DNA of 64,000 bases, taken from Holothuria leucospilota (lineage: Eukaryota). The notes below the pieces were generated by a model. It saw only the letters and a list, made by a program, of their open reading frames with translations. It did no database searches and had not been told where the DNA came from. The position numbers and the translations under genes were made by a program. How positions within the stretch are numbered: position 1 is the first letter of the stretch; each line of letters opens with the position of its first letter. Below are positions 1 through 42,650 of the stretch, piece by piece. The DNA lies in NCBI GenBank assembly GCA_029531755.1, contig CM055969.1, positions 23,751,285-23,815,284 of the forward strand, written 5' to 3'.

Positions 1-3000
1 ACTTGAGTAAGTTTATTACAATCAAAGGTACCCAAAATTGACCAATTTTATAGAATTGAAAGTTTGAAAGCAAGCAAGAAATCCTACCAACAACCATAGC
101 ATAACAAGCCCAGTACTTCAACTTTTTGACTTGTCTACCATATCTATAATATTTAACTCTCCTCAACTTCTTGACTTGTCTACCATACTAAACATTGAAC
201 ACAACTGCACCAACACTGTTACACAGCGCAACACATGAACAAAGTACTTAAAAAACAGTTAATCGCTTAACACTTGTTAAATTTCTATATATCAAAGATT
301 TGCAACAAACCTCCACAAACTCTGACAAGGTCTGCGTACAGGAGTGTTCTAGCTGAGATTTGTTTTTCCAACGAACCAACCTAAGGCCTCCTCTGTTAAG
401 ATCATCCAAAGCTTTACTGGCATCAGATGACACAATGGATGCAGATGGTTCATTGATAGCTTCTTGCCAGACTAATGCAGGACACTGACCAATCAAATGC
501 AAGCATTTAGAAACAAACTTGCTATAAGTCTTCACATCTGTCAGGGAAGTGAATTTCTCCATCTCTCTCAAGTACATCCTAGATGGATTGACCACTTGCC
601 CAGCTACATGGTAGCAGTCCAGCAGGTGTGGGGCAATGCCCAGTCTACAGCATGCACAAATGTAGTGGAGATTGCACAATACACTTTTCAATTCGTGGAA
701 GAGACCAGCTTGAGTGAGGTGGTATGGTAGCTCTGAAATGCCACGCAGCTGTGCTCCTTCCAATAAGCCATTACCATGAGGGTCTGCTAACTTGGAGAAG
801 AAACCTGCAGAATTAAAGAATTGTCAGAAATAATGGATTACTGATATGGTTTCATGCCCTGACTTAGTAAACAATGCAAGCTACTGTCCAAAATATCCTA
901 ATATTTTCAAAAACATGCAATCAATGTTTTGAAGGCAAATAGTGTTATACAAATCCCATGGGGGTGGGGGTTGGGGATAAGGAAGGAGGAGGGGGATTCT
1001 GCCTCTCAGTGAAATCTCTTCAACCCCACTTTCCTTCTCCCTTCCTGTCATTTCTTAAACCATTATGCTGCAGTACTGGACAATATATTATGCATACGTA
1101 CTGGAATAACCCCCTATAATTTCATCTGACTCCAATTTCATCATACCCCATTTCCCTCCTCCCACTTTCTAAAAATCCTTATGCTACTGTTGGCCAACTA
1201 AAAGAATGACATCTTGCACATTTACATAACAATGTTTTGAGACTAAAAAGATCTTACCTGCCAAGAGGATATGCATCTGTACTCTCAAGTCAGCTCCTGT
1301 CCCACGAAGGTAACGATGAGTGATGGCTTCCAGAATTAAATTGCTTCCAATCCTTAGTCGAGAGCTTGTATCAAAATGAAAGCAAATACATTTTCAGGTT
1401 AAAGGTTTAAACCAGACAAAACTCTGTAAGAGATTACAATGGAAATGTACTTTTTGTGGTTAGCCCCATGGGCATTCTCCCACCTGATGAAAACTGTTAG
1501 GGCACCAAGTCAATATAGTAAAGCTGCACCTGCCTCATCCAAGCTGCAGCCATGCTTTGTTTTGATACATATTATCAATGGCAGGTTTGAACTAGTCCTG
1601 CACCTGTAATGCCTATAGAGGGATTTCATGTAACGTCACGAGTAATGGATTCCCATGCACTGAAGGGCAAAAAAAACACGCAATAAGCAAATTTACAGCT
1701 CACGCGCACGGCATAACCATAGATACTACTGTGACACAATGGACACGTGCCATTCAAAACCAAACAGACGTGCGATCTTGCCCTTCAAAACAAAAACAGA
1801 CACGCGATCTTGCCCTTCAAAATTGCATCTAGTTGGTTTAAGTCACGTGAAAGAAATCCCTCTATAGGAACATCATATAACTGCAGCCCCTACAGCTTGG
1901 CTGAGGCTGATGCAGCCTGACATTTTGATGGTGCCTAAAAGGGTTGAAAAGCTACACTACAGGTATTAATGCATATTGATACTATATATGTTAAACAACA
2001 TCAACTGAATCAGAATACATTCCCCTGGCTTACTTGATCAGTCTCTTGCCTAGCCCTCCCTCACCTATTTTCTACCCCTGGATTAGTTGGCCAGTCTTTT
2101 GCCTAGCCCTCCCTCACCTGTACCCTACCCCTGCATTAATTGGCCAGTCTCTTGCCTAGCCCTCCCTCACCTGTACTCTACCCCTCCCCCTCTCTCTCAC
2201 CTGTACTCTACCCCTGGGTTGATAAGAGTCTTCACACTCCTGATGAGTCTTGCAAAGATGGCAGATGGAATAAATTCTGGTGGCGTCAAAGACAAACCTC
2301 TTACATCTTGGTATGTCAATTTTTTATTCTTGAGATGAAAGGCTAAACTAAGAAGGTGATGAAGTTCTTCCTCCTCCAGACCTGATGATGTTACAACAAC
2401 AAATGAAAGAGAAACTCAATCAACATAACTATAAAGAGAAATGTTCTTTGAAAACTGTCATATATCAAAATGAAAACACTGTATGCATGCAGATACAAGG
2501 TCAAAATTTTATTTCCATTTTTCAAGGGCTCTTTTCAAATGATTTGGGGGAAACGATCACTCCCTAAAATACTTTACAGGAGATATTTGAGGTCTATGCC
2601 AACTATCGTTAATATTTTTTGGACAATTACCCAGAAAATTCTGGATGCTGTGAGGGCAAACTGCCTGTTGTCCCTGTACATTTTATATGCTCACCAGATC
2701 ATTCCATACCTGCAATAACTGTTTTCTATGCTAATATGCATTATTTAGGAATCTCAAAATTGACATTATAAATTATGTTTTTCAACACGGGTCAGCTGTA
2801 TGCACAGTTAATATACCTTTGGGTATCTAAGACATAACGATGTACACAACATTATTTTTTGCAACCTTAACTTTAACCACATCTAAGACATTGCTACATC
2901 CAATTATGACAGAACTGTCATACCATCCCTAGCACAAATCAGCAGTACAAGCAGCTCTTTAATCATCTTATCATCATATTCTTTCTCAAGCCGGCTGATT

Positions 3001-6000
3001 ATCTCCTGCAGCAAGGCATCGACGGTGTGAGAGAGGGCTTTCAGCTTGCCAGATACCTGCATAAAAAGAAATTGAATCGCCAACTTACACATAAAATCTT
3101 ACATTAGAGACAAATCTCAGGTGTGACATGTGTCAATAAGTGGAGAAGGTCCACTAGAGATAAAAAAAAATTCTGGTTAAATGCCAAAATTGAGGTATAA
3201 AATGTACTATCAATTAAATTATGCATTGTGCACGTTGTCTCTAAAAACTCTGCATGATACCTTCCTACAGACAAAGCTCACCTCCTCAAAGACTCCAAAC
3301 ATTCTGATTTCTTCACAGGCCAGGCTCAGAAACAAGGCCAAGTTAGCTTGTCTCTTTGATACAAGAAGTTTCATCTGCAAGGGGAACACAAAAACAAAAC
3401 TTTTCAAAAATTCTCTTTGTTGTTTCCCATGCTTAAGGAGACAAAAGAACCTTAATTGTGAGTTACATGTCTGTAGTATCAAGGTGACTGCTGACTCTCC
3501 ACTCAACTTTTTGCAATGATTAAGTCTAGATCAAGTCCTGGCCTTTGTAGAGTGCATTCCCTTATTTTCAAGTGTTTGCCTATTTTTGTGCAGTATACAT
3601 AAACAGCATTAAGTTTACATTTGACTCTCGGCAGCATAACTTCATAAAACTACTAGTCTCCATCCTAGTATATCTCTGCCAAACCTGCAGCTGGGGTATT
3701 CACATTAATAATTTTTAATTTATTATTTTCTTCTGACAATGCACCACCCTCCCCAAAACTACACACAATCTTCACATCTCCTGATTCACGGAACTGATGG
3801 TAGATAGGACACCTTGCCTATTCAGTGGTTATCTCGAAGGGAGATTTGAAACTGGAGTGTGTCTGATTCCACACATCAGAATACGCCTACAGTCCTTTCT
3901 ATATGGGGGTTGTCATGTAATAAGTTTAGGGTCTTTACGAAAGATAAATCTTTACTTTAACACATATCCAGATTTATGATAAGAGCAGAGAAAATTAGCT
4001 AACATTCCATATTTGGAGAGATCCTTACTTCTTTCAAGCTGCAATTAATTCACAATTGATAACACGTTCTCACCTGATTATTGAACGGTGATTCATCCAA
4101 TTGTTTTCTGTACACGCCAAGAATTTTCCTCACCATCTCTGACTTATCCAAGATATCCAAAGGTCCTAGATTGAAGACTGATACATTGTCCCTCCTCTGT
4201 AAGGCCTTGTAGCATTCTTTATTTTCACCACATGATACAACTATGATTACGCTCTGAAAATTTCCAAAGATAGATAAAATACAAAGGTCAAAAAATTCTG
4301 CTTCACAGCAATCCATGTCATTACTGCTTTTTGTCAACACTTTTTCACCTGAGCTACAGACAGCTTCACAAGACCTTTTGGAAACTACTGAACTGAGGTT
4401 TCCTTACACTGAGTATAAGATTATTAAAATACACAAAAAAAACCATGTGGCAATTTGTTCCAAATCCTCAGGTTTTCACCTGTGTTTGTCATGGGTAATC
4501 ACACATATTTTGCATGAAAACCTGTGTTTTCCCTTGACACTGACACAGGTTGGCCAGTTGCCACACTTTGCCATAGGTTTGATGCAGGTTTGCCACAGGT
4601 TTTCAAGCAAAATGTGTGGCAATTAAAACCAATGTTAACAAAGAATTCTGAGACAAAACCTGTTGTTTGAAATTAAAGGCAGGAGAGGTGTGTCAACCTG
4701 TGTCAAACCTGTGTCAAACCTGTGTCCAGAGGGTTCCAAATACGCAGGTCATCACCCAAGAACACACGTCATTTCTTTTGTTTTTTATGTGTGATCACAC
4801 GTGGTTACAGACACAGGTTGACACACCTTTTTTGTAAGGGTCAGTTTGATCTATTGTGGCCCCTTATTTGGAATGGGCTCAAGGGCTGTATGCCCATTAA
4901 TACCAAAATTCTGTAAGATTCAAGAGATCTTATGAATCTCAGAAAAGTGAAGGTTACAACTTTACATCAATATGAAAATTATACCTTCTCTGTTTTCCTA
5001 CCAATGACAAGCTGAACTACTTAAAATCCGATTAGTGAATTGACAATCACATTTGGGACTCTATGAAGGATTTGCAAGGAGCAAGTTTCACTGGTTTTGT
5101 ACAAAGTCAGTAAAGTTGTTTGAAGTGCAAAGCTCCACACTACAGACCAGTGTTGTATTTAAGCAAAAAAGAGCAGCTAAATTCATTTCACACCAGATTC
5201 AAACCTACATAATGAACTGATACATACTCAATACATGATGAACTCGAAGTAAAACTTTTCCTTTTCATTAAAGACACTAAAATAATAGTCATTTTTAGTG
5301 TTTTTCTCATCTTGTCAGTGATGTACTTCCACAATACTTGTGTCTGCTAGAAATGTTTTCTGTGTTTACTCCATTGAATGTCCACTTCCTAATAAACAAC
5401 CCTCTCCCCCAACCCCACCCTCCCCCCCACCCCCAAAAATGGCCATATCCACTTCTCAATAAACAAATCTATTCACGACAAAATTGATGGCTTCTGGTAC
5501 TTTATCAGTATCCTTGACTCGGATCTTCTGTTTTTGTTTTGTAAACTTGCAAAAGCATTGCTGTGACTGTGGCTGACAGAGCCGTAGTAAAGCTGCTGGT
5601 GGATTGAAGGATGGGACATGTAAATTTACATTCTCTGGTCAGAGCCACTCATACAGTGCCTCAAAAATCTTTGTAAGGTCAGAATTTGAAATGACAATTC
5701 AACCCAAATCACAAATATCCCCCCCCCCACCAGCCCCTTGGAAGTTTTAACACCCCAGGGCATTTAATAAATACATATTTGCATGAAGTGCCAGCTTGCA
5801 AGCTCAGGTGCAAACCAGTGCAATTACCACCTTGCTTGAGGATTATTACAATGTATACCATCCAATACAACTCACCTCTGGTACTGATGCTGGCAGCCAT
5901 TCCATACTCTGAGCTTGATGGGATGGTTCTAGTTCATCTAACCCGTCAATTAAAATGACGTACTTTTCTTGACTAACCATCTGACTGGCTTGATCAAGGA

Positions 6001-9000
6001 ATTTAGGCAACTTGTTCATGAGATTTCTTGAAAGAAACAAACAAGTACAAAATAAAGACAAGATGTAAGTAAACCTGTGTAGATTTAATTCACACGTGTA
6101 CTGCCCTTATCAATACTCTCAGTGATATTTATACTGCAGACTTGATGGTATGATGCATTTTTTGATCACATACTTGCTACTGTATGATCAATAGGACCAT
6201 TGGCAACAGTTTTGAACAACTGTGGCGATGTGATATTACATTTGTTATTGCCAAAGAAGGCTGCCAATTGTGTAAGGTCTTTAAATGTTAAATGTTAAAT
6301 TAAATTTCCAAATACAACAGGTTGCAATATTTAGCACTCTTGCTCCAACTTTTTCTGTTAGCTTCACAAATGCTCTAACTTTCTAAAACTTAAATAAGAT
6401 AAACCTACAATGGTGTAATGTCATTGCAGCACTTCATAATAAGGCCCCATAAAAAAAATTACTTGTTTCTCATCACTGACTTCTGAAAAAATCCGTCGCC
6501 CGGTCCTTTTTTATTTTTTATTACCAACCAATTTTCAGTGTGTTCTGTCTGGGCCCTATTTTATACTATATACCATGTATCCGGAGTGTTGTCAAGTCCG
6601 CCTTTCATAGAACATTAAGGAGTAACACTCACTCATCTGATATAACAGTTGTGTGTGATTCAGTATCATTACGGACTTCGGGACTTGTAGCACATTTTAG
6701 TGAATCCACAACGGTCTGTGCACGGCAGAGCATATTGATACAGCAATGATCGCAAGTACGGGAAGAACGTTTGATTGTGGGATTTGGTCGGAGTGATTTG
6801 GGGCAATATATTTATGCAAAAAACGTCAGAAACGATGTCAGAGATCACATTTTCTTATTTAAAAAAAAAATGCAGACATGGAAACGATAACGTCGGCCCG
6901 GGACGTTTTTATTTTTTAATAAAAAATAAAAAAAAAAATCCACCCGGCGTCCAAAATCAGCCCGGCCGGTGATGAGAAACAAGTAATTTTTTTTATGGGG
7001 CCTAAACAGAAATCACATTTTCTTGCACAATTAGAAACAAAGTACATTTGCTACACTTTTTACAGGAGAAAAAATATTCTGCAATACTTTCAAAACATTT
7101 TCTGAGCCTGTAAGCATTAAAGCATGGACACAAGTCTGTCAACATCACTGGCAAAAACAAGCATAAGCAGCTGCTGGTTAAGAAAATTTGAGGTTGTTCA
7201 AGCTAGAGGGTGGGTTTGAAATATTTACTGAAGCTACAAGAATTGAAAAACGGAAAAATTTACTTGTAATCTTCAGGGACATGCATGAAGAGGTTAAAGG
7301 TCAACTTGATGGTCCAGCAGATTCTTGTTAGGACATTTAGGAGTTGAGAGGATCCAGCTGTTGCACCAACAAAGTGTGTGAAGTAGTTATAAGATGAGTG
7401 TGCTTCCACAAATCTTTCTTTCAATGCAGCCTGAAGACAAAATGACACAAAGAGGATGACTGCCTTTCAAACAAAATGCAAATACCTTCTGTTTAGAACT
7501 GACATTAGAAGCAATGATCATTATACTCCTTATTCTTGTTTTATCACACTTTTGAAGCATGCACATAAGGGTATGACTACAACTTCCATGAATAAATTTC
7601 ACAGTAGAAAGTTGTGAGTTACATAACATGGAATCTTTCCTTAGAATTTGAACCCCCGTAGCATTGAACTTCGAGTCTTTAACTTACAATGAAATAAGTT
7701 AATCCCATTACATTGGATTTCCACTTAATTTACATTGAAAGAAGTTAAAATTTACCCAAAATACTGTTAGTGACTACTTCACACTACTTTTAATACTCTG
7801 AGCTGCTATCACAAGTTGGTAGATGATTTCATCAACAAAGTGAAATGACCACCACTATCCCTGTTTAAGAACATAGTGAAATGACCACCACTATCACTGT
7901 TTAAGGAATTCAGCATAATAAAGGGTAAACATCCTCACCATGAAGGCAGACTTTCCACATCCTTGCTGGCCTGTTAGAACAAATATTCTTCCTGCCTCTT
8001 TCTCCATCATTTCTGTAAACTTAATCAGCTGAGATTTCCTGCCAACAAATACTGATGTGTAAGTGTCCATCAGAGCTCTGTGGTGTTCTGCTTCCTCCTC
8101 CAGAACCTCTCTTTGAGAAACCTGAGATGAAGGAAAATGTAGATGATCTCTCCCTCTCTACTGATACACACCTAAGAACTACCAAACTCCATGACAATCA
8201 CTCCCAAACTAGGGTCACAAAAACTGAACAAGGGGTGCAAAGTAAGAACAAACAAAAAATATTATGGAAGAAATCAGCCATGCAAAAACAACATGACAAG
8301 AATGAACACAAGGACAATCATAATTTAATAAAGGAACTAATAAATATTACTCATCCCTGTCAAGAACAATTTGACTATCATAAAATGGGGGCTACTAGCT
8401 ACGATGTCAACCTCCCCCTTCCCAACAGTGAGCATTCATTATTTTATTGGACAAGGTTAGGCTTGAAAGAGAACAAGCCATGGGAAGTTTTTGAACCATT
8501 GCTGTAAGAGTCACAACAGTTTTCAAGAGGAGGTAACAAATATTACTTCTCCAAAAGGGTATGATAGATTTTTATCATGATGCTGTGTTTTCAACTTGTT
8601 TTATGAGGCTGGTAAATAACTCTTTGTAAAGTCTTTCACAAAGGGGCATATACTGAATTCATCATACATATAAATACAAAGACATACTCAAAGGTCTAAG
8701 TATATACTTAAAGGTAAACCTGCATCTCCTCCAATGCCACTTAATGAAACCTAAATGATGTTTATTTAAATAACACTCTATACAACACTGACATCTGCTA
8801 CATACTTGTCACTGGTGACATAACCATCTACTTGACTCCATTTTTCAGTTGAAAACACCTTGAAAATATCACCCTGAAACTGCATCATTGTAAAATCTTG
8901 CAACTATTAACCACTTTTAATTGTCTTACTTTTTACCCAAGTCTGACAAAAACAGATCAGTCTTCATTTACTTTTACATGTAATCAGGTCTGTGAAACAT

Positions 9001-24000: not shown

Positions 24001-27000
24001 TTAGTATTTCTCATGGAAAAAATTTGACTAAAACTATCGTTTGGAAACAGCTAGTTTTAATACCTTCTTTCAAAGACTATCTGGAAGCTGTAACATACGT
24101 GATATCCTGATATCATAAAATAAGGCATTGTTAGTAGTATCAACGGTTCCACCCTCCTCGGGAGCTTTTACCATTGCAGAGCTGTAGAGCCACCTACATA
24201 TACACTATATATCACACTTGAGAAAACCCCATTACAATGCCAAACAACCAACTTACACATCAAAACAACTCTTCCCACTCATATTATTTCACATTTGCAT
24301 AAAATTCCTATCTTTTATTTTCACTAAAATATCTATCCTACAATGATGAGAAGACAGCTGATCATTGGTTAGCAGCCCTACTAGCCTAGTACAACAGCAG
24401 TACCCACAACACCCTGTTACTTGACACAACACAACACAACACTAAATGAAATGATGCCACACTACGCTACACCACACTCAGTCTGGTAAGTTCTGGGTAC
24501 ACATGCACATCTACTATTTATCGTGTAATGATTGTCTTATAGCATCATTATATTACATCAGAGTGTCTACTACAATATCTTGATTACAGAATTACCATCC
24601 CAGCCCTATCATGAAGGGTTAGAGTTAGATGATGTTTTACGGCTCAGTTTCTAACCAACTGGTTTAAGTCAGGCTGGCCACGGCCTTTTCTCCAGTTGTG
24701 GCTCACTGGCTTGTTTTCCCTACTCCATTACTTATGCTGATCACCCAGCACAATGGCAGTAGGTTCCATTTTTAAAGTCTTTGGTATGACCTGGCCAGGA
24801 GTTGAACCCCAGACCTTCTGGCTGCAAGTCGGATGCTCTAACCACTTGACCATGCAGTCAGTCATGAAGGAAACTAGGCTCACCAGCATGTTGTTTGTTG
24901 TTGTTTTTTGTTTATTTTTGTTTTGTTTTTATTTGCCTTTCCCTCATGACAATGTGATTTAACTCACCTATCAAGGTCTCCCAAGTTTCAGCTTTGTTGC
25001 CTTTCAGAGAAACCTGAGTTTCCCAGGTTTCTGGGGTGGGTAGCTTCATTCGCTTACCAGCCCGGTCTGATTCCCATGTACCAGGCAATCGGCTTTTGTA
25101 GAATGCTTCCAGATCCTCAGGATACCTGACAAAAAGAAGGCAAAATAGAAAGAATTGTGAAAAAAACAAAAAAAGAAAGTCAGTAAATAAATGTACACTA
25201 CAACCGCCAAGAATAGATATGATGAAAAAAGGAAATGCACAACTGGCAAAATCATCCAATCTCCTCTCAGCCTGAAGATGACAAGACTTTTAAGATTTCA
25301 ACAGAATCTCCCTTGTGTGCTACTTGTCTTCTGGCCTAAAAAGCTCTCTGCCTGAATGTAAAACCTTTTTCTCTGAACCAACCACTCAACCCAACCTTAC
25401 CATAATGCTTCCTTCACTTGTCAAGCAATTTTTTAATTTTGTATTTCCATAAAATTTCACAAGGTACAGTAAGCATTTTGAGTTTCTGCTTATGACTATG
25501 CGCCCCTAGTTCGGCCATTAAAACTTAGTTTGGCATTCAAACAGGTATGGACCAATAATTACAGCTTCCTAGATAAAATACCCAAGAAATACTCGAAGGT
25601 TCTCAGAAACTGAATGGTATTAAAAGTTTCCATTTTTCATTACTTTTTGCCAATAAGACACATGACATGCTCCACAGGGTCTGTGATGTGAAGTTTTCGA
25701 ATCAGTTCTTTCAAGTTGAACGAGCGTTTCTCTATGTCCTCCGTCTCTTGATCTTCCTTCTCTTCATTACTATCACTATCTGCATCCTCCTTGGCTGCTG
25801 TCTTGGCTTTCTCTTTTTCTTTCTTCTTGTCACTCTGTTTCTTTTGCTTGTTGTATTTTGCTGCAACACATAATTTGAGGGGCTTACAGAGTTGGCTCAT
25901 GAATTTCATGATTTTTTTGCCACACTTGTCGCTCAAGCTCTTAAGCCCATAAAAACTTACAATTTTCCATGTTTTTGGTAACTACAGGAAGTGAGAAATG
26001 GCTAATGAGGCTAATTAGAAGCATTGTCAGCAATAATTTCCTTAAAAATTGTAACAAAATATTCAATACCAACTCGATAAGCCCTCTTAAATGTTACACA
26101 AACTCTGTACAGAAAGCAACACTTTTTTTCCCCATTTCTCCTTTCTTACAAAGCTGGGTTACTTATGAAAGCTAAAAGGACAAGACATTTTGTGCATATA
26201 AATGATTTCACTTTGGAGGATTCCTACCAATGATGTAGGAATTTCACAATTTCCTGTCCTAATCTTTTTGGTTCCATTTGGATTTTACTTTGAAATATGG
26301 CCATGAGAATACAAACATTCACAATCTGCAATCATATTGACTCAGACAAAAGTTCCTTTCAAAGAGATAACAATGAAAATACATTATGACTATTACTACT
26401 ACCAATTTCTTTTCTACAATAACATACTATTATAATATATACCAAAGGAAAAGTACACAAAATTTATGATCATAAATCGTCCCCATTTTTTAAGATGAAA
26501 TCATAATCCACTTACCATTTTAAGTGAATAAAAAAAATAACCTTTATCATTTTTGATACAAGATGGTCAAATTGCAAAATGGAATCAAATGCAATAATGT
26601 GTACGTAACCCTAGGTTTCCAACCATGCTATGCTAAAGAACTATCAACAAAAACTCAAACTTGGCAGATGCCACATGTTAATATTCAATTATTCACTGAT
26701 TTACAGCTGATAGGAAATCATATAGAAACCTGAAAGCTGGGAAGGAATGTGAAAATTCCTATGTCCATTTCATAAATTATGCAACATGCCACTTTTTGTT
26801 ACCATGGTCATTACTGTAGTAGTGCAGAAAACTCTTCCACAGTTTTCAACGTATTTCACTACTAGCCCTCTTTGCTGAATATACTTTTTTAGAACTGTAT
26901 GTAAGTTACAGTGTATAGTAAAGCCAACCTTTCATGAGAATGGTATAAAACGCAAATCTTTGATGAAAACCATATTTAATTAATATAACCTTTAATAAAG

Positions 27001-30000
27001 ATGAGTAATTGGTTGCAAAGCTAACCAGTGTCCACTTACCCAGTTGATATTTATCAAATTCAGGAAACTTGGCAATCATAACTTTACGCAGGGCTGAGGG
27101 CAGTGCACCAAAACTGATTGAGTCATCATGAAAAGTCTGTGTGTGGAAGAAATTAAAGCCATCGAAACAAATCACTGAATGCACAGATGAAAGTGTCAAC
27201 ATATCTTTTCCTGCCACACTTTTTGATTTCCAAAAGGCAAACTATGACAATAATACTTGCCAATGACATTTCCAAATCAATGGTACCTTACCATCTTCAC
27301 AAGTGTCATGAACTCTGATAAGTGCATTCTCTGGCATTAAAGAGATTTGCCAGAGACAAAATTCAATGAGTTCAAAAAATGCAGCAAAGTTTTCTCTGTT
27401 AGGAGGTGAAAACTGCATCTCAATAGCTTCTAGCATTTGGAAGATATTAATTTTCAAAGAAATGCACTTTTTTCTCAAGATGAAGTGCATTAAGGGAAAT
27501 CTGTGATGTCATCCCAGCACATTACTTTGACACAGAACTGAATTTCTTTAAGATATTGATGCCGCTGTAGGGGATATTTAGCAACTTTGTTAGTTATGCC
27601 CTACATATGGTGTAGATTTGTGCTAAATATACATGGAAACATATTCAAACATTCCAACAGTATCAAATATCAAGGACAAACAGGACATTCAATTATAAAG
27701 AAAAACAAAAGGAATCTGAGGCAATATGCCCACTTTCTGTGACCTTGATAAAAACTGGAGGTATTTTTTGACAAAAATGAGTAATCTCTAATATGAGGTA
27801 TTTTGAGTTAGAAAAAGAGTATTGCTACAGGATTTGGTGGGCATTAACTGGAATTTTGTTCTCTTTCATATGAGACCCTTGTAAAAAGCCACTGGAAAAT
27901 GCCTTTAAGCAGTAACACTAGAGTACATGAAGCCTAAAGCAGGGCACTCCACCTAGATACCAATCACTTAAATTTTGGTACAGTAGGTTTATAGGTCAGC
28001 AGGCACAGACAATTTTGACAATTATATCACTTTTCAAAGGAAATAAACTACAGTATCCACCCACTGCATTTATCAGGCAGATCATATGTATTTATCAATG
28101 GAATGACTCACCACACTTACCCTGAGCATGGTCAGTCAAGGGTGGGTCATTGACAATGACAATGTGACTCACATGTACATCACTGTACCAATATTGTCAG
28201 CTCCCAAAGTGACTAAGGAGTGAGTCACAGGCCTTGAGTTAGATTTTGCAGGTGTGCTACAAATGACACTCCTCAGGATATCAAGGAGTGTGGTAGGTGT
28301 GCTGTTTTATTAAACTTTAATAGATTTATCTGTGTTTTAGGTGTGCAAAAAATAGCACTCCTCACAGTGATTTGAGGCAAGTGGTGGTGTGCGATCGCAC
28401 TCGCATGCCTCAAAATTCAAGGCCTGGAGTCACTTAATTACTAACCCTGTGTGAGTCATTGTCAGCTATTACACTCAGTACAGCAATGTAGGAAAAATGT
28501 CAGTCATTACAGTAACTGACATGTCAGTCAAAAATATACACTGTGCATCAAATTTGTGACTCAGGTGTGTGTCACTTTACACAAGAGATCAGTTACAGTT
28601 GACTGAGGGGGTGTGTCAATGTGCACACTTATGTGTGCAATTATTGACCATGCTAACCATGCTGACCATGGAGGTATGTCATTCAACTGTTAATTCCATA
28701 ATACCTGTACTTCACTGGTAATAGGCTACACAGCAGAACAGAAATTGTTCATTTAGTAGCTTACGCTTTGCTCAAACCTTCCTAAATTCAGAAAGCCAAA
28801 TAATAGACAGCCCAATGTCCACTTTGCAGGCTTGTAATATGCAATATCATGGCTTTTATCCAGGAAATATAATTAAAAAGAGTTTTGACTGCATGCAAAA
28901 GAGATGTTACATACATACATACAGTACATATAGTATTTATAATGCACTTAAACACAGATACAAGCACAATACAAGCACAAAAAAGAGCTAAGACAGAGAG
29001 AAAACCACTTTAAGCAAACCGGCAGTTTTTAAATGCTTCTTAAACAGTACCAGTGAGGGGCTTCTCTGACTGATTGTGGGAGAGAATTCCAGAGCCGTAG
29101 GCCTGCTACACTGAATGCATAATCACCACTGGATCTAACTGTTTTCGGAACATGAAGCCAAGCATGTTTCAAACATGTACCAAAATTTTCCTATTAAAGT
29201 GATCAAAGAAATACATCCTGATTCCCAGTATTTCATTACAAACTTTCCTGACTTTTCCTGATAAATGTTCAAAATTTCATATTATTTTTTTGGCTTATTC
29301 CCAGTTTGGCATGTATTCTTGCTAAATGAATAAACATGGGCAAAATACAACCAGACTTAGGACTACCTTTTCATTTGGGTCAATCCAATGTGCTGGTTTT
29401 TCCTTGATTTGAGGCATTTTTCTCAAATTTTCAAAATTTTTCCTCACTGAGAAAGAAGAAGCTCTTTTCCCAATTTTTTATCTTTCCAGGATGACTGAGA
29501 ACCATGATACAATGACTGTTAATAACTGTACATGTTTGTCACTTCTCAGCATACAGCTACACCACATCACACTAACTTAATAACCTCCTGTAGTTCTTAG
29601 TCTTGAAATGTTACTTCTATTTACAGGCATACTCCATACCAAATAAATCTCAGCGACTTCAATCCAATCAGAAGGCAGTGCAATGCTTTTCTGGAAATAT
29701 TTCTTCAAGAATGGACGGCATTCCTTATGGTACGATGCAAATGCAAGCAGAAAATTGGCAGTAGTCCTTATATTAAGCTCCTTTCTGGTATACAGTGCTA
29801 CCTGGAGACAGAAAGACAAAAAAGAAATGAATTGTTCAACTGAATGAATACGTAACTACCATAAATATTGGATGTAATATTCATAGACAGGGAGGCTCTG
29901 TTGCAAGTTGGCAGTGATACAGCTACAGTAGGCAACAGGGTTTAGAGACCAGGGGGAGTTGAGGGGAGGCAGCAAATTTGCAGAGATGAGTGGGGCAAGA

Positions 30001-32571
30001 TAATAATGTCAACTGTAAATCTGAAAAACGTTCTGTCATTTCATTTAAGGGGCAACAGGCTAAATGATCCCCCCCCCCCTCCATCCATGACTATATGTCT
30101 GAGGGATTGTACTGTAGATGAGTAAAGGCTGCTTCAAGTTTCCAAATTTTCACATGCTATAAAGATAAAAGAACCATATATGGTCATTCCTTGCTCTTAC
30201 AGGCCAATCACAGACAAAGCTTAGAGTTGAACAGTGTTCAACTTTTATAGCTTTATAGCGCTATACTGATCTATGAACCAGCCTTAATAACACTGTGTAC
30301 GTGCAATCAATATTATAAAATGACTGATATTAGCCTTGGCCAGAAACATCCACAAAGCAGATTTTATTTCAGTATTATATTAAATGTTGTAAAGACTTAT
30401 TTTTAAAACAGAGTTGTTCTTATGACCCAGAAGCTCAATCCCCCCCCTTCCCCTCCCCCTCCCCCTCTCACACTCTTATCTCTCACAAAGGTTTGCTTTA
30501 CAGTGTAAAGTAAGAGGTAAGCAGATTACCTTTAAGATAAATTCTGGATCAAAATCTATTATTTCTGAAGCTGCTGCAGAAATGTCTACCCTATTAGCAT
30601 TTTCAGCATCATGAAAATCTGCATTTCCAATCAGCGAAGCACTCACAGAGTTGATGAAATTTTGCTACAGAAAGAAAAAATTTCAAAGCAGTTATTTAAA
30701 ATTTTATACTGTACCCAACACACACACACACAACACACATAGCATATAGAGAAGTACTGTAAATGTTCACCACAAAATGCCTTCCTGTTAATTATTACAC
30801 CATGGCAATGTAACAAAAGTTCTCAAAAAAAATTACCCACTTCCATTCAAAAGGAAGCCAGGGCAAGAATATGACAGTGCCCTGTAGTTACAGGGGGTAC
30901 AAAAAATTATCAGGGGAAGTCCCTGAAATTTTGATCAAAATTTGATCTGATGTTACGACAGTAAGTGAAATGAGGGAAAATTTTGAATTCGACAGCCACA
31001 ACATAGTGTTGACGTATGAAATTCATACTTTATGGCCAAACTCTTCCTCAACATGGCCAAATTCAGGATCTGCTACTGTATACTGTACCTCCATCATTGT
31101 AGGGAAGAATATGTCATGGCCAAATGACTACTTTTCATGCCCAAATGGCCATTTTTAATGTTAAAAATAAGGCCAAATTGGCAATATTTGGCCATAAAAA
31201 TGGTCAAATGGCAGCCCTGCTACTAAAAGACATGGACAGCCACAAGGATACAAATACTGGTGGGTGCAACTAATACACAACTGTACATTGTATTCTTGAC
31301 AATGACATACTGTACTGTATGTATGGTGCAACAATTCCAACAATTGAGCATTATGAATGAACAGATTTACAATTACACATAACTTGCTCTACTATTACAC
31401 CTATTACAAAGCCTCCTAAAAAGTTATTTAAAAGGAAATGAGAGGTGAGAAGAGTTAAGAATGTTGTTTTATTTCCTTTTTTAAAATAAATTTTTAGGAG
31501 GCTCTGTAATAGTTGTAATAATAGAGCAAGTTATGTGTAATTGTAAATCTGTTCATTCATAATAGTGTATTGTTGGAATTGTTGCACCATATGTTATCAT
31601 CAAGAATACAGTAAAAACAATTGAATAGTATTCTAGAATGTGAACAATTTGTCATCAACACATGTCACATGATTAAAACAGTTAAAAAGGTTACATATCA
31701 TTCACAAGCAATGCATTCAGGTAACTCCAATGGGGGAAGATGGCTGTGCCACTTTTGCCCTCAGGATATCTTCATGCATATTTGCCATACTGTGCTTTCT
31801 TAATCCTCTTCCCCCACCTCCTGCCTCAACAACAAAAAGTCCCATACACCTTTATACTGAATTTTTACAAACCTTTTGTTTCTGGAACATCCAAGCTGAT
31901 TCCTCTTCCAGCTTTTCTTCATCTTCTTGCAACTGGAGCTTTTCAAATGTATTCTCATCCTTTTGACTAAGGTCATCATCTATCACCATAGATAAGTCAT
32001 ACTCCGGGTACGCAAAGTCAGATGAAATGGTCCGCTCCCAATATGGAATGGCATCAAGGCCAATCTCCTGCTCTGTCCATCTCTCCGTCGTACTTGCGGT
32101 TCCATGGTGGTGGTGATGAGAGCTAGTTTTAAGGGCATGACCAGATCCAAATTGTTCCTCACTACCAGCAAGCAAGCGTTTCTTACTTGCGCTTGTCTTC
32201 TGGCTAATCAATGTGTCCCCATATGATGAAATCTGAGGAGTGCTATCTAGAGAACTGGAAGGAGAGTACTTTACAGCAGCCTTTCGTTTCAGGAGGAGTG
32301 GTCGAAGTGAAGAGTCTAAAAGCAAAGGGTTAGTCAGTCTTGCAGCTTTGTAGGTGGAGGATGCCTCTCCTTTTTCCCCCACAGAGGCAGTTGAGCCTTT
32401 CTGGGACAAGAGTGAGCTCACCTTAAGTGATGAGCTCTTCAAAAGTTTGTTCTCTGTTGAAGCTAAGCCCAGAGATCCCTTAGACTTCAGTGAAAGTAAG
32501 GGTGACCTCAAGGATGAAGTCAAGCGGGGGTTGGACAAGTTTTTACTTCTGAGATCCATGTTTAACACCAC
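1..32571 (-). CDS. TEP1: TEP1-like (telomerase-associated protein 1 family) multi-exon gene with TEP1_N-like repeats, TROVE, RGG box, DUF4062 and NACHT NTPase. The start codon is at 32571 and the 3' part (post-NACHT, expected WD40 region) runs past the window start
   Basis: Translating the minus-strand exons in order gives several recognisable modules. N-terminal: LTSSLRSPLLSLKSKGSL-type repeats. TROVE-like: QNFINSVSASLIGNADFHDAENA, VALYTRKELNIRTTANFLLAFASYHKECRPF...LPSDWIEVAEIY, RMKLPTPETWETQVSLKGNKAETWETLI, KLPFMAMLRNLRNMIAAGISQKHH. DUF4062: VFISSTFKDMHGERDLLTRYVFPELR...VDLRWGVTEEQ, CDYFIGILGERYGFVPE. NACHT: VLTGQQGCGKSAFM (P-loop) and YVILIDGLDELEPS (Walker B). All exons have GT..AG boundaries with polypyrimidine tracts. 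The family assignment comes from recalled motif knowledge, not a database search. Confidence 0.7.
370..804 (-). CDS. TEP1: TEP1-like exon (post-NACHT). The 3' boundary is uncertain, with a possible donor near 370; otherwise the frame stays open to 248
   Basis: Acceptor aattctgcag| at plus 805-811. It encodes GFFSKLADPHGNGLLEGAQLRGISELPYHLTQAGLFHELKSVLCNLHYICACCRLGIAPHLLDCYHVAGQVVNPSRMYLREMEKFTSLTDVKTYSKFVSKCLHLIGQCPALVWQEAINEPSASIVSSDASKALDDLNRGGL... Confidence 0.55.
1259..1364 (-). CDS. TEP1: TEP1-like exon
   Basis: Acceptor ttttgatacaag| and donor TGGCAG|gtaaga. It encodes SRLRIGSNLILEAITHRYLRGTGADLRVQMHILLA. Confidence 0.55.
1612..1868 (+). mobile_element. MITE family A, copy 1 (~257 bp, TIR cctatagagggatttc...), inside a TEP1 intron
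   Basis: Its termini cctatagagggatttcatgtaacgtcac and gtcacgtgaaagaaatccctctatagg are inverted. It is the reverse complement of 48919-49144. Confidence 0.65.
2030..2215. repeat. Minisatellite, ~62-bp unit x3 (cttgcctagccctccctcacctgtac.ctacccctg...)
   Basis: Direct repeats are visible in the sequence. The ORF track shows the repeated peptide MASLLPSPPSPV. Confidence 0.7.
2924..3056 (-). CDS. TEP1: TEP1-like exon (NACHT-associated helical region)
   Basis: Acceptor tttttatgcag| and donor GGGATG|gtatga. It encodes VSGKLKALSHTVDALLQEIISRLEKEYDDKMIKELLVLLICARDG. Confidence 0.65.
4074..4253 (-). CDS. TEP1: TEP1-like exon (NACHT, sensor region)
   Basis: Acceptor aaattttcag| and donor AATCAG|gtgaga. 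It encodes SVIIVVSCGENKECYKALQRRDNVSVFNLGPLDILDKSEMVRKILGVYRKQLDESPFNNQ. Confidence 0.75.
5888..6026 (-). CDS. TEP1: TEP1-like exon (NACHT Walker B)
   Basis: Acceptor tttctttcaag| and donor CCAGAG|gtgagt. It encodes NLMNKLPKFLDQASQMVSQEKYVILIDGLDELEPSHQAQSMEWLPASVPE. Confidence 0.8.
7264..7429 (-). CDS. TEP1: TEP1-like exon (NACHT, between Walker A and Walker B)
   Basis: Acceptor ttttgtcttcag| and donor GATTACAA|gtaaat. It encodes AALKERFVEAHSSYNYFTHFVGATAGSSQLLNVLTRICWTIKLTFNLFMHVPEDY. Confidence 0.6.
7939..8121 (-). CDS. TEP1: TEP1-like exon (NACHT P-loop / Walker A)
   Basis: Acceptor ttttccttcatctcag| and donor TTCATG|gtgagg. It encodes VSQREVLEEEAEHHRALMDTYTSVFVGRKSQLIKFTEMMEKEAGRIFVLTGQQGCGKSAFM. 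Confidence 0.8.
9072..9198 (-). CDS. TEP1: TEP1-like exon
   Basis: Acceptor ttaataaag| and donor ACAAAG|gtaagt. It encodes YSCYWGGLVDGKPITAGLEEFGERVLNNLWTKISCDFDTK. Confidence 0.55.
9811..9923 (-). CDS. TEP1: TEP1-like exon
   Basis: Acceptor atatcacag| and donor AACAA|gtgagt. It encodes RDVPGQWKKNFKAESDASHSKLMNLKDGILKSGFEVFN. Confidence 0.55.
10365..12925. mobile_element. Non-autonomous TIR DNA element (~2.56 kb) with 70-bp terminal inverted repeats, within a TEP1 intron
   Basis: 10365-10434 (ctacggaagcgtagaagggacactgcattgacgagttaccgacatggcaaaatgacaaaaatctgcaaattg) is the reverse complement of 12856-12925 with one mismatch. The interior has no long ORF. It holds poly-G/C tracts plus segments similar to 52190-52370 and 50340-50420. 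Confidence 0.7.
12590..12900. repeat. Subterminal tandem repeat (~110 bp x ~3) inside the TIR element
   Basis: Repeated gacgagatactagcaactgtg...cagcatctcgtcaaaacgtcatttttctgaattttgtcat units. Confidence 0.65.
13047..13283 (-). CDS. TEP1: TEP1-like exon (DUF4062 C-terminal half)
   Basis: Acceptor ttgtgctttcag| and donor TTGA|gtgagt. It encodes SVEVCLSEVAHCDYFIGILGERYGFVPEFYPAMLGSKFEWLAEYPSGRSMTELEVQQALQDHADDQGAFFYIRDSGFI. Confidence 0.7.
13818..13877. repeat. (TACAA)n microsatellite, about 11 units
   Basis: tacaatacaatacaatacaatacaatacaat run. Confidence 0.9.
14290..14466 (-). CDS. TEP1: TEP1-like exon (DUF4062 N-terminal half)
   Basis: Acceptor caattttcag| and donor CATAA|gtgagt. It encodes WRTVRVFISSTFKDMHGERDLLTRYVFPELRSRARRLLLNIVEVDLRWGVTEEQTKQH, the hallmark DUF4062 motif FISSTF.DM..ER. 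Confidence 0.75.
14673..14738 (-). CDS. TEP1: TEP1-like exon (short, precedes DUF4062)
   Basis: Acceptor ttttacag| and donor CGAAG|gtaaca. It encodes LEKRIETTAVHFRIPEGPPVR and joins in frame to the next exon to give ...PPVRRWRTVRVFISS. Confidence 0.6.
15025..15061. promoter_or_regulatory. Perfect 24-bp palindrome gtgtgttatactagtataacacac followed by the CRE octamer TGACGTCA (15054-15061)
   Basis: Read directly from the sequence. Intronic, so any function is unknown. Confidence 0.4.
15773..15929 (-). CDS. TEP1: TEP1-like exon
   Basis: Acceptor tttcttcttaacag| and donor GTCAAT|gtaagt. It encodes VWNKFSSEEHPNDIYIAGFSDQILRFIAERGDTGQLNHVENIDKCYSLKDVN. Confidence 0.5.
16171..16278. repeat. Near-perfect hairpin or foldback mini-element (44-bp arms, 20-bp loop)
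   Basis: 16171-16214 is the reverse complement of 16235-16278 with one mismatch. Confidence 0.75.
17646..17791 (-). CDS. TEP1: TEP1-like exon
   Basis: Acceptor cggtcattag| and donor TTTG|gtaagt. It encodes FDTIVILAEGWMVRSSQAENLRQSIATYRHLLNRNMLFVNIALKNNAL. Confidence 0.45.
19452..19516 (-). CDS. TEP1: TEP1-like exon (short)
   Basis: Acceptor tctgtag| and donor CAGGAG|gtatga. It encodes NMLSGISSYHSMNSVLLEVIRNRQE. Confidence 0.45.
19560..19830. repeat. Interspersed repeat family copy, related to 56860-57110
   Basis: Shared blocks agcgactgtt..ctttccacaatt...aaaaagaact.ttcttcaaaaggaaattctct.tgaccca.ga.tgatgt...cttccttcccag.atg.attgt.ta.c. Confidence 0.5.
20411..20498 (-). CDS. TEP1: TEP1-like exon (short)
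   Basis: Acceptor gtggtttag| and donor TGTAT|gtaagt. Open frame WCEMGRHFGLRRDDLERENAYGLFYPYMY. Confidence 0.45.
21534..21696 (-). CDS. TEP1: TEP1-like exon
   Basis: Acceptor tttcactag| and donor ACG|gtaaga. It encodes VLEVGVLLGLMCKYSCEDCSFLLCDYKGHEEVELEEGTILDNMESVIQLATV. Confidence 0.55.
21953..22135 (-). CDS. TEP1: TEP1-like exon
   Basis: Acceptor cttcaacag| and donor AAATCT|gtaagt. It encodes CEYNYDAELLARYRKALDTAVKIATAYNVKPIRGKTLILCSLTEMMWQSCTKARGLGKPKS. Confidence 0.6.
22722..22852 (-). CDS. TEP1: TEP1-like exon encoding an RGG/RG box, (GR)n run
   Basis: Acceptor ctttatag| and donor CCGTT|gtaagt. It encodes VREETSSAANYSSGYRGRGRGRGRGRGRGRGGSGAASWWKKKVEKP. Confidence 0.6.
23675..23870 (-). 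CDS. TEP1: TEP1-like exon (TROVE, FMAMLRNL motif)
   Basis: Acceptor cagataatag| and donor GAGA|gtaaga. It encodes KLPFMAMLRNLRNMIAAGISQKHHTWVIKKLTDEGSVTNSKQFPFRFFSAYQVLDDMEEEREKAE. Confidence 0.7.
24590..24858 (-). mobile_element. tRNA-derived SINE with a tRNA-Lys-like head, in a TEP1 intron
   Basis: The minus-strand head gcatggtcaagtggttagagcatccgacttgcagccagaaggtctggggttcaactcctggccagg has tRNA A/B-box-like segments. Its anticodon stem is not paired, so it is not a functional tRNA. Confidence 0.55.
24968..25125 (-). CDS. TEP1: TEP1-like exon (TROVE, KLPTPETWE motif)
   Basis: Acceptor ctttttgtcag| and donor GATAG|gtgagt. It encodes YPEDLEAFYKSRLPGTWESDRAGKRMKLPTPETWETQVSLKGNKAETWETLI. Confidence 0.7.
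25649..25859 (-). CDS. TEP1: TEP1-like exon with a Lys/Asp/Glu-rich linker followed by FNLKELIRKLHITDPVEHVMCLIGKK
   Basis: Acceptor ttatgtgttgcag| and donor near GGCAAAA|gtaatg. Long open frame in the ORF track at 25640..25936 (-). Confidence 0.55.
27040..27210 (-). CDS. TEP1: TEP1-like exon (TROVE module)
   Basis: Acceptor gtgtggcag| and donor CTGG|gtaagt. It encodes KDMLTLSSVHSVICFDGFNFFHTQTFHDDSISFGALPSALRKVMIAKFPEFDKYQLG. Confidence 0.6.
27292..27440 (-). CDS. TEP1: TEP1-like exon (TROVE module). The 5' boundary is approximate
   Basis: Open frame ...QMLEAIEMQFSPPNRENFAAFFELIEFCLWQISLMPENALIRVHDTCEDG ending at donor GATG|gtaagg. The acceptor is not resolved. Confidence 0.45.
28130..28670. 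repeat. Inverted-repeat structure, MITE-like
   Basis: Internal inverted segments 28215-28235 against 28405-28425 (caggccttga.ttttg), with ends that share catggtcag in inverted orientation. Confidence 0.35.
29640..29801 (-). CDS. TEP1: TEP1-like exon (TROVE module)
   Basis: Acceptor tctgtctccag| and donor TTG|gtatgg. It encodes VALYTRKELNIRTTANFLLAFASYHKECRPFLKKYFQKSIALPSDWIEVAEIYL, which matches the Ro60/TEP1 TROVE signature (R..anfllA...h..crP...lPsDW). Confidence 0.7.
30530..30664 (-). CDS. TEP1: TEP1-like exon (TROVE module, N-terminal part)
   Basis: Acceptor ctgtag| and donor AAG|gtaatc on the minus strand. It encodes QNFINSVSASLIGNADFHDAENANRVDISAAASEIIDFDPEFILK. Confidence 0.65.
31300..31600. 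repeat. Hairpin-forming MITE in TEP1 intron 1
   Basis: 31300-31400 is the reverse complement of 31500-31600 (arms ~100 bp, loop ~100 bp), for example gaatgaacagatttacaattacacataacttgctctactattaca against tgtaataatagagcaagttatgtgtaattgtaaatctgttcattc. Confidence 0.7.
31874..32571 (-). CDS. TEP1: TEP1-like exon 1 (first coding exon). ATG at 32571, N-terminal Ser/Leu-rich repeats, poly-His, acidic tail
   Basis: The six-frame track shows a 239-aa open frame MVLNMDLRSKNLSNPRLTSSLRSPLLSLKSKGS...HHHHH...EDEEKLEEESAWMFQKQK. The donor CAAAAG|gtttgt lies at plus 31872-31877, which is revcomp. Confidence 0.65.
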
Positions 32572-34204: not shown

Positions 34205-35000
34205 GTTCTTTTACTGCACTTCATCTAACACTTTGTGTTTTGTGAGAAAGACGGCATGGATATAGGTGCCCAAGCTACTATCATCTGTAATTGCGGGCTG
34301 TAAAGTGTGACTGGACAATGTTGTCTGCATCAAACATTATTTGCACTTCATCTTACAGTGCGTGTTTTGTGAGAAAGACGGCATGGATATAGGCGCCCAA
34401 GCTACTATCATCTGTAATTGCGGGCTGTGAAGTGTGACTGGACAATGTTGTCTGCATCAAACATTATTTGCACTTCATCTTACAGTGCATGTTTTGTGAG
34501 AAAGACGGCATGGATATAGGTGCCCAAGCTACTATCATCTGTAATTGCGGGCTGTGAAGTGTGACTGGACAATGTTGTCTGTATCAAACATTTTTTGCAC
34601 TTCATCTTACAGTGCGTGTTTTGTGAGAAAGACGGCATGGATATAGGTGCCCAAGCTACTATCATCTGTAATCGCGGGCTGTGAAGTGTGACTGGACAAT
34701 GTTGTCTGCATCAAACATTATTTGCACTTCATCTTACAGTGCATGTTTTGTGAGAAAGACGGCATCGATATAGGTGCCCAAGCTACTATCATCTGTAATT
34801 GCGGGCTGTGAAGTGTGACTGGACAATGTTGTCTGTATCAAACATTTTTTGCACTTCATCTTACAGTGCATGTTTTGTGAGAAAGACGGCATGGATATAG
34901 GTGCCCAAGCTACTATCATCTGTAAACGGCATGGATATAGGTGCCCAAGCTACTATCATCTGTAATCGCGGGCTGTGAAGTGTGACTGGGCAGTGTTGTC
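34205..35000. repeat. Satellite with a 127-bp unit, about 6.2 copies
   Basis: gcacttcatcttacagtgc.tgttttgtgagaaagacggcatggatataggtgcccaagctactatcatctgtaattgcgggctgtgaagtgtgactggacaatgttgtctgcatcaaacattatttg recurs with a 127-bp period. The ORF track shows the repeated peptide MIVAWAPISMPSFSQN. Confidence 0.9.
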
Positions 35001-42280: not shown

Positions 42281-42650
42281 TGTCTTTAAGCTAGCCATAC
42301 ACTACACGACTTAGCACACCGCAACCCAACTCGATTGTCGGGTCGCCAACAGTCGTGAGGTGTACAAGAGTTTAAGACGTGACTGCGATTGGCAGTTTTA
42401 AGCAGTGTTGTAACAAGTCAAGTCACTGACTCGAACTCGAGTCGCATATTTGACTTGACTTGACTTGACTTGGTCATCAGCCAAAATGACTTGACTCGAG
42501 TCTGGAACCCTAAATGACTTGACTTGACTCGAGCCATCACCTAAAATGACTTCACTTGACTCGGACTATTGAAGACTCGAGTCAGGGAAAGTAACTCGAG
42601 TCTCCTTCTGCGACTCGAGTCCTTTGATGCGACTCTGATGTTTGTAAACG
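42265..42650. repeat. Left arm of the large inverted repeat, containing (gacttgacttg)n and gactcgagtc subrepeats
   Basis: 42265-42400 is the reverse complement of 48290-48420. The partner arm is at 47990-48420. Confidence 0.75.

Follow-up and report, generated by a model that had tools for sequence, protein, structure and literature searches.

Does the coding signal scattered over the first 32.6 kilobases (kb) of a 64,000-nucleotide (nt) window of Holothuria leucospilota DNA (CM055969.1) come from one gene, and if so, from which? The original prediction for this stretch, whose full length is meant by "the window" throughout, had described an intron-rich gene of the TEP1 type with 27 exons and an RGG box. 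Colinear exons, Pfam domains and best named matches all point to TEP1, as had been proposed. The gene is very probably a single orthologue of TEP1 (telomerase protein component 1, the minor vault protein), intact and protein-coding, whose 5′ two thirds lie in the region on the minus strand, with the residues of an NAD+-hydrolysing (NADase) domain and a linker rich in arginine-glycine (RG) dipeptides.

The window is AT-rich (GC 34-46%) and long open reading frames (ORFs) are absent from it. Many short open segments lie on the minus strand in the first 32.6 kb; several of them match Pfam TROVE, DUF5920, NACHT/NPHP3_N or APAF1_C when taken singly. The first homologue search used a crude concatenation of these segments as query. 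The matches, at about 35-60% identity, came from invertebrates, fish and protists and either bore the name "telomerase protein component 1" or were TROVE-domain proteins. When the 120 listed homologues were aligned by tblastn to positions 1-32571, 22 blocks resulted, colinear with one another and every one of them on the minus strand; all of the coding signal in this interval belongs to that strand.

Exons were delimited with a custom protein-to-genome dynamic programme, allowing GT-AG introns in all three phases, and 20 guide proteins. A low intron penalty had produced spurious micro-exons in poorly conserved linkers; the penalty was raised and the consensus of the 20 guides was used. Ambiguous junctions were resolved by frame tracking, by summed BLASTP score against all homologues and by splice-site context. 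The resulting model comprises 27 coding exons, the same number as in the original prediction. All introns are GT-AG, and the exons extend on the minus strand from 32559 down to about 305, specifying an open frame of 1,635 residues. The coding sequence amounts to 4.9 kb and contains no in-frame stops or frameshifts, in a gene whose span within the window exceeds 32 kb, as had been estimated. Most exon boundaries are common to 5-16 of the 20 guides.

A Pfam search with the assembled protein gave an unambiguous TROVE match. The TROVE profile (PF05731) covers residues 211-634 over positions 2-442 of 442 (E=6e-108). It is followed by DUF5920, a vWA-like domain missing from the original domain list (residues 665-834, E=5e-12), and by DUF4062, which was on that list (residues 863-975, E=4e-16). 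A STAND P-loop NTPase at about 1099-1253 comes next, recognised by the NPHP3_N profile (1108-1236, 35.8 bits against a cut-off of 24.8) and bearing the two motifs that had been read from the sequence, Walker A (GQQGCGKS, 7971-7948) and Walker B (VILIDGLDE, 5959-5933). Further on lie a weak HTH_NWD1 match (1341-1458, 20.5 bits, cut-off 27) and an APAF1_C match at its cut-off (1498-1602, 23.1 bits, cut-off 22.8). The order of domains is a disordered Ser/Leu-rich N-terminus, a Ro60-type TROVE ring, the vWA-like domain, DUF4062 (TeTIR/NIR), the STAND/NACHT-type NTPase, a winged-helix region and an APAF1-like helical domain. One component of the predicted architecture was not recovered: neither the whole protein nor exon 1 alone gave a Pfam match to TEP1_N (PF05386) at E<=1, and the single weak internal similarity within exon 1 has a score that 8 of 500 shuffles reached. 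TEP1_N repeats belong to mammalian TEP1 and are not known as a trait of the whole family.

For both halves of the protein, the best named matches are to "telomerase protein component 1" (from the oyster Saccostrea, the amphioxus Branchiostoma, Lingula, Octopus and Centruroides). With the C-terminal half by itself as query, TEP1 of Lingula, Centruroides and Octopus heads the matches, followed by prokaryotic DUF4062-NACHT-WD40/TPR proteins. No protein named NWD1 or NLR appears in the match list of either half. Neither a missing TROVE match nor best hits from an NWD1 or NLR family, two of the outcomes said to speak against the prediction, was thus observed. The best overall identities, about 47-51%, are to environmental sequences. 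Alignments of the WD40-bearing guides reach down to 302-305, from where these guides go on into WD40 sequence unmatched anywhere in the window; this places the WD40 part beyond the window start, where it had been expected.

The TIR-like domain allows a residue-by-residue comparison with the human protein. According to three 2026 preprints, DUF4062 is a TIR-like NADase, named TeTIR or NIR (10.64898/2026.05.01.722283, 10.64898/2026.09.21.753143), and human TEP1 in reconstituted vaults converts NAD+ or NADP+ to ADP-ribose (or its phosphate) and nicotinamide. In human TEP1, E1008 is catalytic, and F902, R914, C959 and R976 are required (10.64898/2026.05.01.722283, 10.64898/2026.09.21.753143); R908 is less important, the R908A mutant having kept considerable activity, and R954 is located in the BB loop. 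The solved human TEP1 TIR-like domain (PDB 11gz_A) aligns to residues ~864-1072 of the H. leucospilota protein with E=2.6e-61, and an offset of +893 reproduces the published human numbering. Exon 15 (14300-14476, residues 858-917; 14-16 guides agree) encodes the first half of the DUF4062/TIR-like NADase domain and provides F865 (F902 in the human protein), K871 (R908), R877 (R914) and the RWG loop at 905-907. Exon 16 (13047-13283, residues 917-996), placed by the guides, Pfam and the 11gz_A alignment, encodes the second half of the NADase core with C922 (C959), R939 (R976) and the catalytic Glu971 (E1008; codon 13123-13121). F902, R914, the RWG loop, C959, R976 and E1008 of human TEP1 are all conserved; as judged from this alignment, the H. 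leucospilota protein lacks none of the residues on which NAD+ hydrolysis by human TEP1 has been shown to depend. From this conservation we infer that the H. leucospilota protein would be an active NADase.

Whether the two halves of the model belong to one gene needs to be considered at the boundary between the vWA-like domain and DUF4062. The region could hold two adjacent colinear genes, the first a p80/Ro-like gene for TROVE and vWA and the second, downstream of it, an NWD-like gene for DUF4062, NACHT and WD40. The linker at this point is poorly conserved and includes exon 14 (14673-14737, residues 837-858). This short exon has a good acceptor and donor and gives the best BLASTP sum; it is the least certain of the exons, its exact boundaries being used by 1 of the 20 guides (P0111). 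However, the boundary can be crossed by either of two joins without loss of the frame, the second being from an alternative exon 13 donor (15753) directly to exon 15. Many homologues in the databases are TROVE-only or DUF4062-NACHT-only, and the amphioxus annotation holds TEP1 as two models on one contig (P0013, P0093). Yet in amphioxus the point of division is the RG linker, within TROVE, which looks like an annotation break, and TROVE, DUF5920 and DUF4062 (plus the NTPase in some) occur together in one polypeptide in transcriptome-derived and other homologues (P0004, P0186, P0123, P0177, P0145). Moreover, the best matches of the C-terminal half are TEP1, not NWD1 or NWD2. A pair of genes is therefore given very little credit here, and a single TEP1 gene is retained.

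The gene model was compared with that of an oyster, Saccostrea cucullata, whose "telomerase component p80-like" protein (P0005) was mapped to its locus (L001) at 100% identity. Sizes of corresponding exons in H. leucospilota and oyster are, in nt, 135/135, 162/162, 97/97, 158/158, 184/181, 153/147 and 146/143. Exons 2, 6 and 9 have the same phase as their oyster counterparts, the position and phase of the intron at exon 7 also match, and the large N-terminal exon of the oyster likewise ends in phase 0. This close correspondence of sizes and phases supports both the gene model and the orthology. About half of the aligned residues are identical between the two proteins (53% to the first row of alignment A1). 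The oyster gene differs in having extra introns and an N-terminal exon without detectable similarity, and its record is partial, ending inside the vWA-like domain. An AlphaFold model was made for the oyster orthologue, as a proxy. It has predicted local distance difference test (pLDDT) values >90 for the ring and for the vWA-like domain that follows it, in which beta and alpha elements alternate, and it resembles Ro60 and vWA structures. Its best matches in the PDB are Ro60, Rsr and phage TROVE structures (E 1e-12 to 4e-8).

Several points weigh against reading the locus as an intact TEP1 orthologue with the exons given here. All splice junctions are inferred from homology and consensus sites, and four points are ambiguous: the exon 7 donor (23674 preferred; 23655 possible, weak), the exon 8 acceptor (22861 preferred; 22852 weak and of the same phase), whether exon 14 exists, and the donor of exon 27, which falls somewhere between about 317 and 272 in a frame that meets a stop at 250-248. 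The start codon at 32559 is provisional. The ATG (32559-32557) stands in good context, with A at -3 and G at +4, and an in-frame TGA lies 15 nt upstream; a coding exon may lie further upstream, as the oyster has a short one 5′ of its large N-terminal exon. The WD40 region is outside the window, and the structure model is that of the oyster proxy, not of the H. leucospilota protein. The Pfam NACHT profile (1120-1253) scores just below threshold, at 23.8 bits against a cut-off of 26.7; the predicted NACHT domain thus stands as regards the Walker motifs and the NPHP3_N match, and fails as regards the profile that bears its name. Lastly, R908 and R954 are both replaced by lysine.

The sub-threshold NACHT score, the two substitutions and the incompleteness of the gene in the window could also be taken as signs of a decaying pseudogene or a non-functional TEP1 paralogue. 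Yet the reading frame stays open through all 27 exons, the introns are GT-AG without exception, the Walker A and B motifs and all essential NADase residues are intact, and the changes at R908 and R954 are conservative Arg-to-Lys replacements. Loss of function of this kind is most improbable, and the single intact gene remains the reading adopted below.

The RGG box of the original prediction corresponds to a real exon, with somewhat different limits and a different character. Exon 8 (22723-22861, residues 554-600) reads …SSG-Y(RG)8G-SGAASWWKKKVEKPL, with acceptor ttctttatag and donor gtaagt, and the coordinates 22861-22723 are likelier than the 22852-22722 first given. Y(RG)8G, at 22820-22767 and followed by WWKKK, occupies an exon of its own. 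It contains eight consecutive RG dipeptides (residues 569-584) and a single RGG, at the end of the run. Thandapani et al. 2013 are said to define tri-RG as at least three RG dipeptides with gaps of 0-4 residues. Di-/tri-RGG, the classical "RGG box", reportedly consists in their scheme of two or three RGG with gaps of 0-4 residues. The run is a tri-RG and not a di- or tri-RGG motif; "poly-RG" or "(RG)8" describes it accurately, and "RGG box" is a loose label. Its codons are heterogeneous, the eight arginines using four codons and the glycines all four GGN codons, and they are heterogeneous in the oyster too. A microsatellite origin of the run was considered and is ruled out by this heterogeneity.

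How widely the RG run occurs was examined in 99 homologues in which the TROVE-to-vWA linker could be delimited with alignment anchors (regex anchors had caught 36 of 121). The linker measures 0-152 residues and is basic in most of them, typically with 20-35% Lys+Arg. It is strongly RG-rich in about 10 of the 99: the oyster, the amoebozoan Gocevia fonbrunei, an MMETSP protist transcript and several proteins from short metagenome contigs, which are probably from microbial eukaryotes. No RG-rich linker was found in the sampled fish, shark, tetrapod, arachnid, octopus or rotifer homologues. The earlier remark that the RG box is not a feature of vertebrate TEP1 is thus borne out by the fish, shark and tetrapod homologues sampled. 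The box is, however, shared with other TEP1s and so is not special to the H. leucospilota gene. A search with the RG exon and its flanks was swamped by RG-rich proteins and returned 11 TROVE fragments, with no new named taxa. In Branchiostoma floridae, TEP1 is apparently split between P0013 and P0093 exactly at this variable linker, likely an artefact of a low-complexity exon.

The closest named relative with an RG box is the oyster TEP1, which reads RGGRGRGRGRGRGG…WW…K-rich where H. leucospilota has Y(RG)8G…WWKKK. There too the box has its own exon, included in the annotated protein; both flanking introns are equivalent, to within one residue, and of the same phases. The two RG exons show no DNA similarity to each other. 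In the oyster model the RG segment has pLDDT values of 48-59 and lies between helix 654-684 and the helix before the first vWA strand; it is accordingly predicted to be disordered. The RG box can be described as a lineage-variable version of the basic, flexible linker that connects the final long helix of the TROVE ring to the one from which the chain enters the vWA-like domain.

The RG exon might be a cassette (alternative) exon, or a pseudo-exon, rather than a constitutive one. Joining the weak donor 23655 directly to exon 9 keeps the frame without RG, and a 120-nt version of the exon (22842-22723) would be frame-neutral. With the strong donor 23674, however, skipping the 139-nt exon shifts the frame. 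Homology scoring favours inclusion by a slight margin only (22412 vs 22208), with 4 guides aligning through the RG exon. Inclusion is also indicated by the exon itself, whose splice sites are the best of the neighbourhood, and by the oyster, where the annotated protein contains the product of an equivalent exon flanked by introns of the same phases. The heterogeneity of the codons, moreover, shows maintenance of the repeat at the protein level. A cassette or pseudo-exon is on balance rather unlikely, and exon 8 is kept as constitutive. As a separate observation, donors 23655 and 23674 together with exon 8 would allow a regulated pair of RG-plus and RG-minus isoforms.

The remaining exons, all on the minus strand, are described from the 5′ end. 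Exon 1 (31873-32559, residues 1-229) lies in a 240-codon open frame and encodes a Ser/Leu-rich, low-complexity N-terminus; its donor is AAG/gtttgt, in phase 0. The His5 run (32118-32104) and the acidic tail after it are there as predicted, and the Pfam TROVE match begins in the last 19 codons (residue 211). Exon 1 alone showed no significant similarity to homologue N-termini; joined to exon 2, it gives alignments to shark and spider TEP1 that span the junction (model residues 172-274, E down to 1e-9). Exon 2 (30530-30664, residues 230-274) begins the TROVE ring (…DPEFILK). Its acceptor (ctgtag) directly follows an in-frame stop, and its donor (30530) is agreed by 8 guides. The ring continues in exon 3 (29640-29801, residues 275-328; 8-10 guides agree), the fragment alone matching Pfam TROVE with E=1e-17, and in exon 4 (27040-27136, residues 329-361; 11 guides agree). 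Exon 5 (25644-25860, residues 361-433; 11-12 guides agree), whose fragment also matches TROVE, carries a low-complexity insert (residues ~365-410) made of a Lys-rich run and then an Asp/Glu/Ser-rich run. The oyster equivalent of this insert (459-510) is predicted to be disordered and is split by an extra intron. Exon 6 (24968-25125, residues 433-486) is the best conserved of the TROVE exons, with up to 83% identity to oyster and amphioxus proteins. Exon 7 (23674-23877, residues 486-554; …LPFMAMLRNLRN…FPFRFFSAYQVL…) matches Pfam TROVE with E=1e-20 and ends in donor GAGA/gtaaga. Past the RG exon, the TROVE profile ends in exon 9 (21953-22136, residues 600-661; …YDAELLARYRKALDTAVKIAT…), which also encodes the helix that leads on to the vWA-like domain.

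DUF5920 is encoded by four exons. Exon 10 (21544-21696, residues 662-712) is placed by guide alignment, BLASTP score, splice context and Pfam, and exon 11 (19452-19526, residues 713-737), with a donor agreed by 7 guides, is part of the best-scoring combination. Exon 12 (17646-17791, residues 738-786) has the agreement of 10-14 guides, and exon 13 (15779-15929, residues 786-836), where the domain ends, matches Pfam DUF5920 as a fragment. Beyond exons 14-16, exon 17 (9811-9924, residues 996-1034; 11-12 guides agree) forms a C-terminal extension of the TIR-like domain, within the 11gz_A alignment. The domain ends in exon 18 (9079-9199, residues 1034-1074; …CYWGGLVDGKP…GLEEFG…), whose donor is AG/gtaagt. 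The NTPase starts with Walker A in exon 19 (7939-8121, residues 1075-1135), continues in exon 20 (7264-7430, residues 1136-1191; 6-7 guides agree) and, with Walker B, in exon 21 (5876-6026, residues 1191-1241), and ends in exon 22 (4074-4253, residues 1242-1301; 7 guides agree). Exon 23 (3282-3374, residues 1302-1332; 5-7 guides agree) is followed by the winged-helix region of exons 24 (2924-3056, residues 1333-1377, containing the weak HTH_NWD1 match) and 25 (2201-2381, residues 1377-1437). After exon 26 (1258-1364, residues 1437-1473; 4 guides agree), exon 27 (305-804, residues 1473 to ~1639) encodes the APAF1-like helical domain and then the opening residues of WD40 blade 1.

Repeats are present in the introns of the gene in modest number, and the earlier description of introns loaded with miniature inverted-repeat transposable elements (MITEs) and hairpins was overstated: two hairpins, one inverted pair and a few short tandem arrays were found. 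Intron 1 contains a near-perfect, MITE-like hairpin (31322-31591) with 112-nt arms, 92% complementary, and a 46-nt loop; a second hairpin, with 58-nt arms, lies at 16164-16285 in another intron. In intron 16, an inverted pair of 72 nt with 99% identity in complementarity flanks 2.4 kb (10365-12924) and encloses a 105-bp tandem repeat (12557-12766). This interval has the look of an element that was inserted recently and is bounded by terminal inverted repeats; no transposase-like ORF was seen in it.

The half of the window beyond 32.6 kb is repeat-rich, and its ten longest ORFs, to which the Pfam screen there was confined, contain no Pfam-detectable domain. A 127-bp satellite (34215-34925; 5.6 copies, 96% matches) lies about 1.7 kb upstream of the TEP1 start codon. 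Dispersed repeat copies of 177-239 nt, 89-97% complementary, pair 1613-1789 with 48965-49141, 42140-42378 with 48314-48552, and 49251-49428 with 50479-50656; the copy at 1613-1789 is inside TEP1 intron 25. These copies share ORF-like translations, which suggests a family of interspersed elements. A complex palindromic block occupies 59201-63938, with mutually inverted 71-bp tandem arrays at 61358-61609 and 63387-63847 and nested inverted repeats with arms of 180-290 nt (e.g., 59201-59458 with 61052-61309, 94% complementary). A tRNA-Ile gene with anticodon TAT (58757-58831, minus strand) lies in the repeat-rich block; it scores 55.9 bits in Rfam and is also called by ARAGORN. No other Rfam family reaches its gathering score in the 64 kb, and Rfam detected no vault RNA or Y RNA in the window.

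Human and mouse TEP1, also encoded by large multi-exon genes, have the same order of TROVE, vWA-like domain, DUF4062/TeTIR NADase, NACHT-type NTPase and helical domain, then WD40. In contrast to them, the H. leucospilota protein is without TEP1_N repeats and has an unrelated N-terminus (Ser/Leu-rich, His5, acidic), and the TROVE-to-vWA linkers of the tetrapod and fish TEP1 sampled are without the RG repeats that it carries. Overall identity to tetrapod TEP1 fragments is about 33-38%. Ro60 and bacterial Rsr likewise have a TROVE ring followed by a vWA domain, but lack the NADase-NTPase-WD40 part. Sequence similarity to them is marginal (phmmer E=1e-6) and solely to the TROVE-domain proteins 9kop/9l5y, 9l5y being described as the Ro60 dimer of Thermus phage phiLo.

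DUF4062 is found directly upstream of a NACHT-type NTPase and WD40 or TPR repeats in NWD1, NWD2 and NPHP3 and in prokaryotic DUF4062-STAND defence proteins (Avs-type, Swarozyc, Vulcan/Vesta). These lack the TROVE and vWA module, and the best matches of the H. leucospilota protein are TEP1. Bacterial and archaeal DUF4062-NACHT-WD40/TPR proteins (P0119, P0127, P0129, P0156, P0210, P0211) align to 85-96% of its C-terminal half at ~28-37% identity. These prokaryotic matches agree with recent reports that connect TEP1 to defence NADases of prokaryotes, and the NADase effector logic of DUF4062-STAND defence proteins has been described in the 2026 preprints. The C-terminal (GR)n tails of the SmD1/SmD3 type and the RG/RGG motifs of RNA-binding proteins show the same uninterrupted alternation of Arg and Gly as the RG box, and the PDB search aligned the run to the SmD1 tail (E=1e-4). 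In H. leucospilota, however, the run is internal, within a structured RNA-binding module, and not a C-terminal tail, and it has only one RGG triplet.

By analogy with human TEP1, the TROVE module would bind small structured RNAs such as vault-type RNA, and the protein would sit inside vault particles and hydrolyse NAD(P)+ to ADP-ribose and nicotinamide. The NACHT/WD40 part would, by a similar analogy, serve as a STAND regulatory or oligomerisation scaffold. According to one published report (PMC2193651), the stability of vault RNA and its association with vault particles need TEP1. The RG run would most plausibly add non-specific electrostatic RNA affinity beside the ring, and could plausibly be a substrate for arginine methylation. 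A more elaborate role can be imagined, in which the poly-RG loop would act at the TROVE/vWA hinge as a second site, regulated by methylarginine, for binding RNA or docking Tudor domains, and would control which RNAs are loaded onto the TROVE ring and, through the STAND scaffold, the timing of NADase activity; this proposal is speculative and unlikely to hold as it stands.

In the recent preprints of 2026, TEP1, until then an enigmatic accessory of vaults and telomerase, is demonstrated to be a TIR-like NADase with relatives among bacterial anti-phage effectors. The present locus adds to this a complete-looking invertebrate orthologue with its catalytic residues all intact. The gene is otherwise an ordinary TEP1 orthologue, a new member of a well-known family, and annotation pipelines already name such genes correctly in other invertebrates. 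The RG hinge is a small feature of modest interest, without a description in the literature searched; a full-text search returned no paper that mentions RGG together with TEP1. If a methylarginine-regulated RG site did exist in at least one bivalve, in H. leucospilota and in several amoebozoan-like protists, its recurrence at the hinge would mean repeated selection and not compositional drift of a basic linker. Natural RG-plus and RG-minus versions of the protein, or a deletion of the loop, would offer a cheap handle on RNA contacts and arginine methylation in TEP1.

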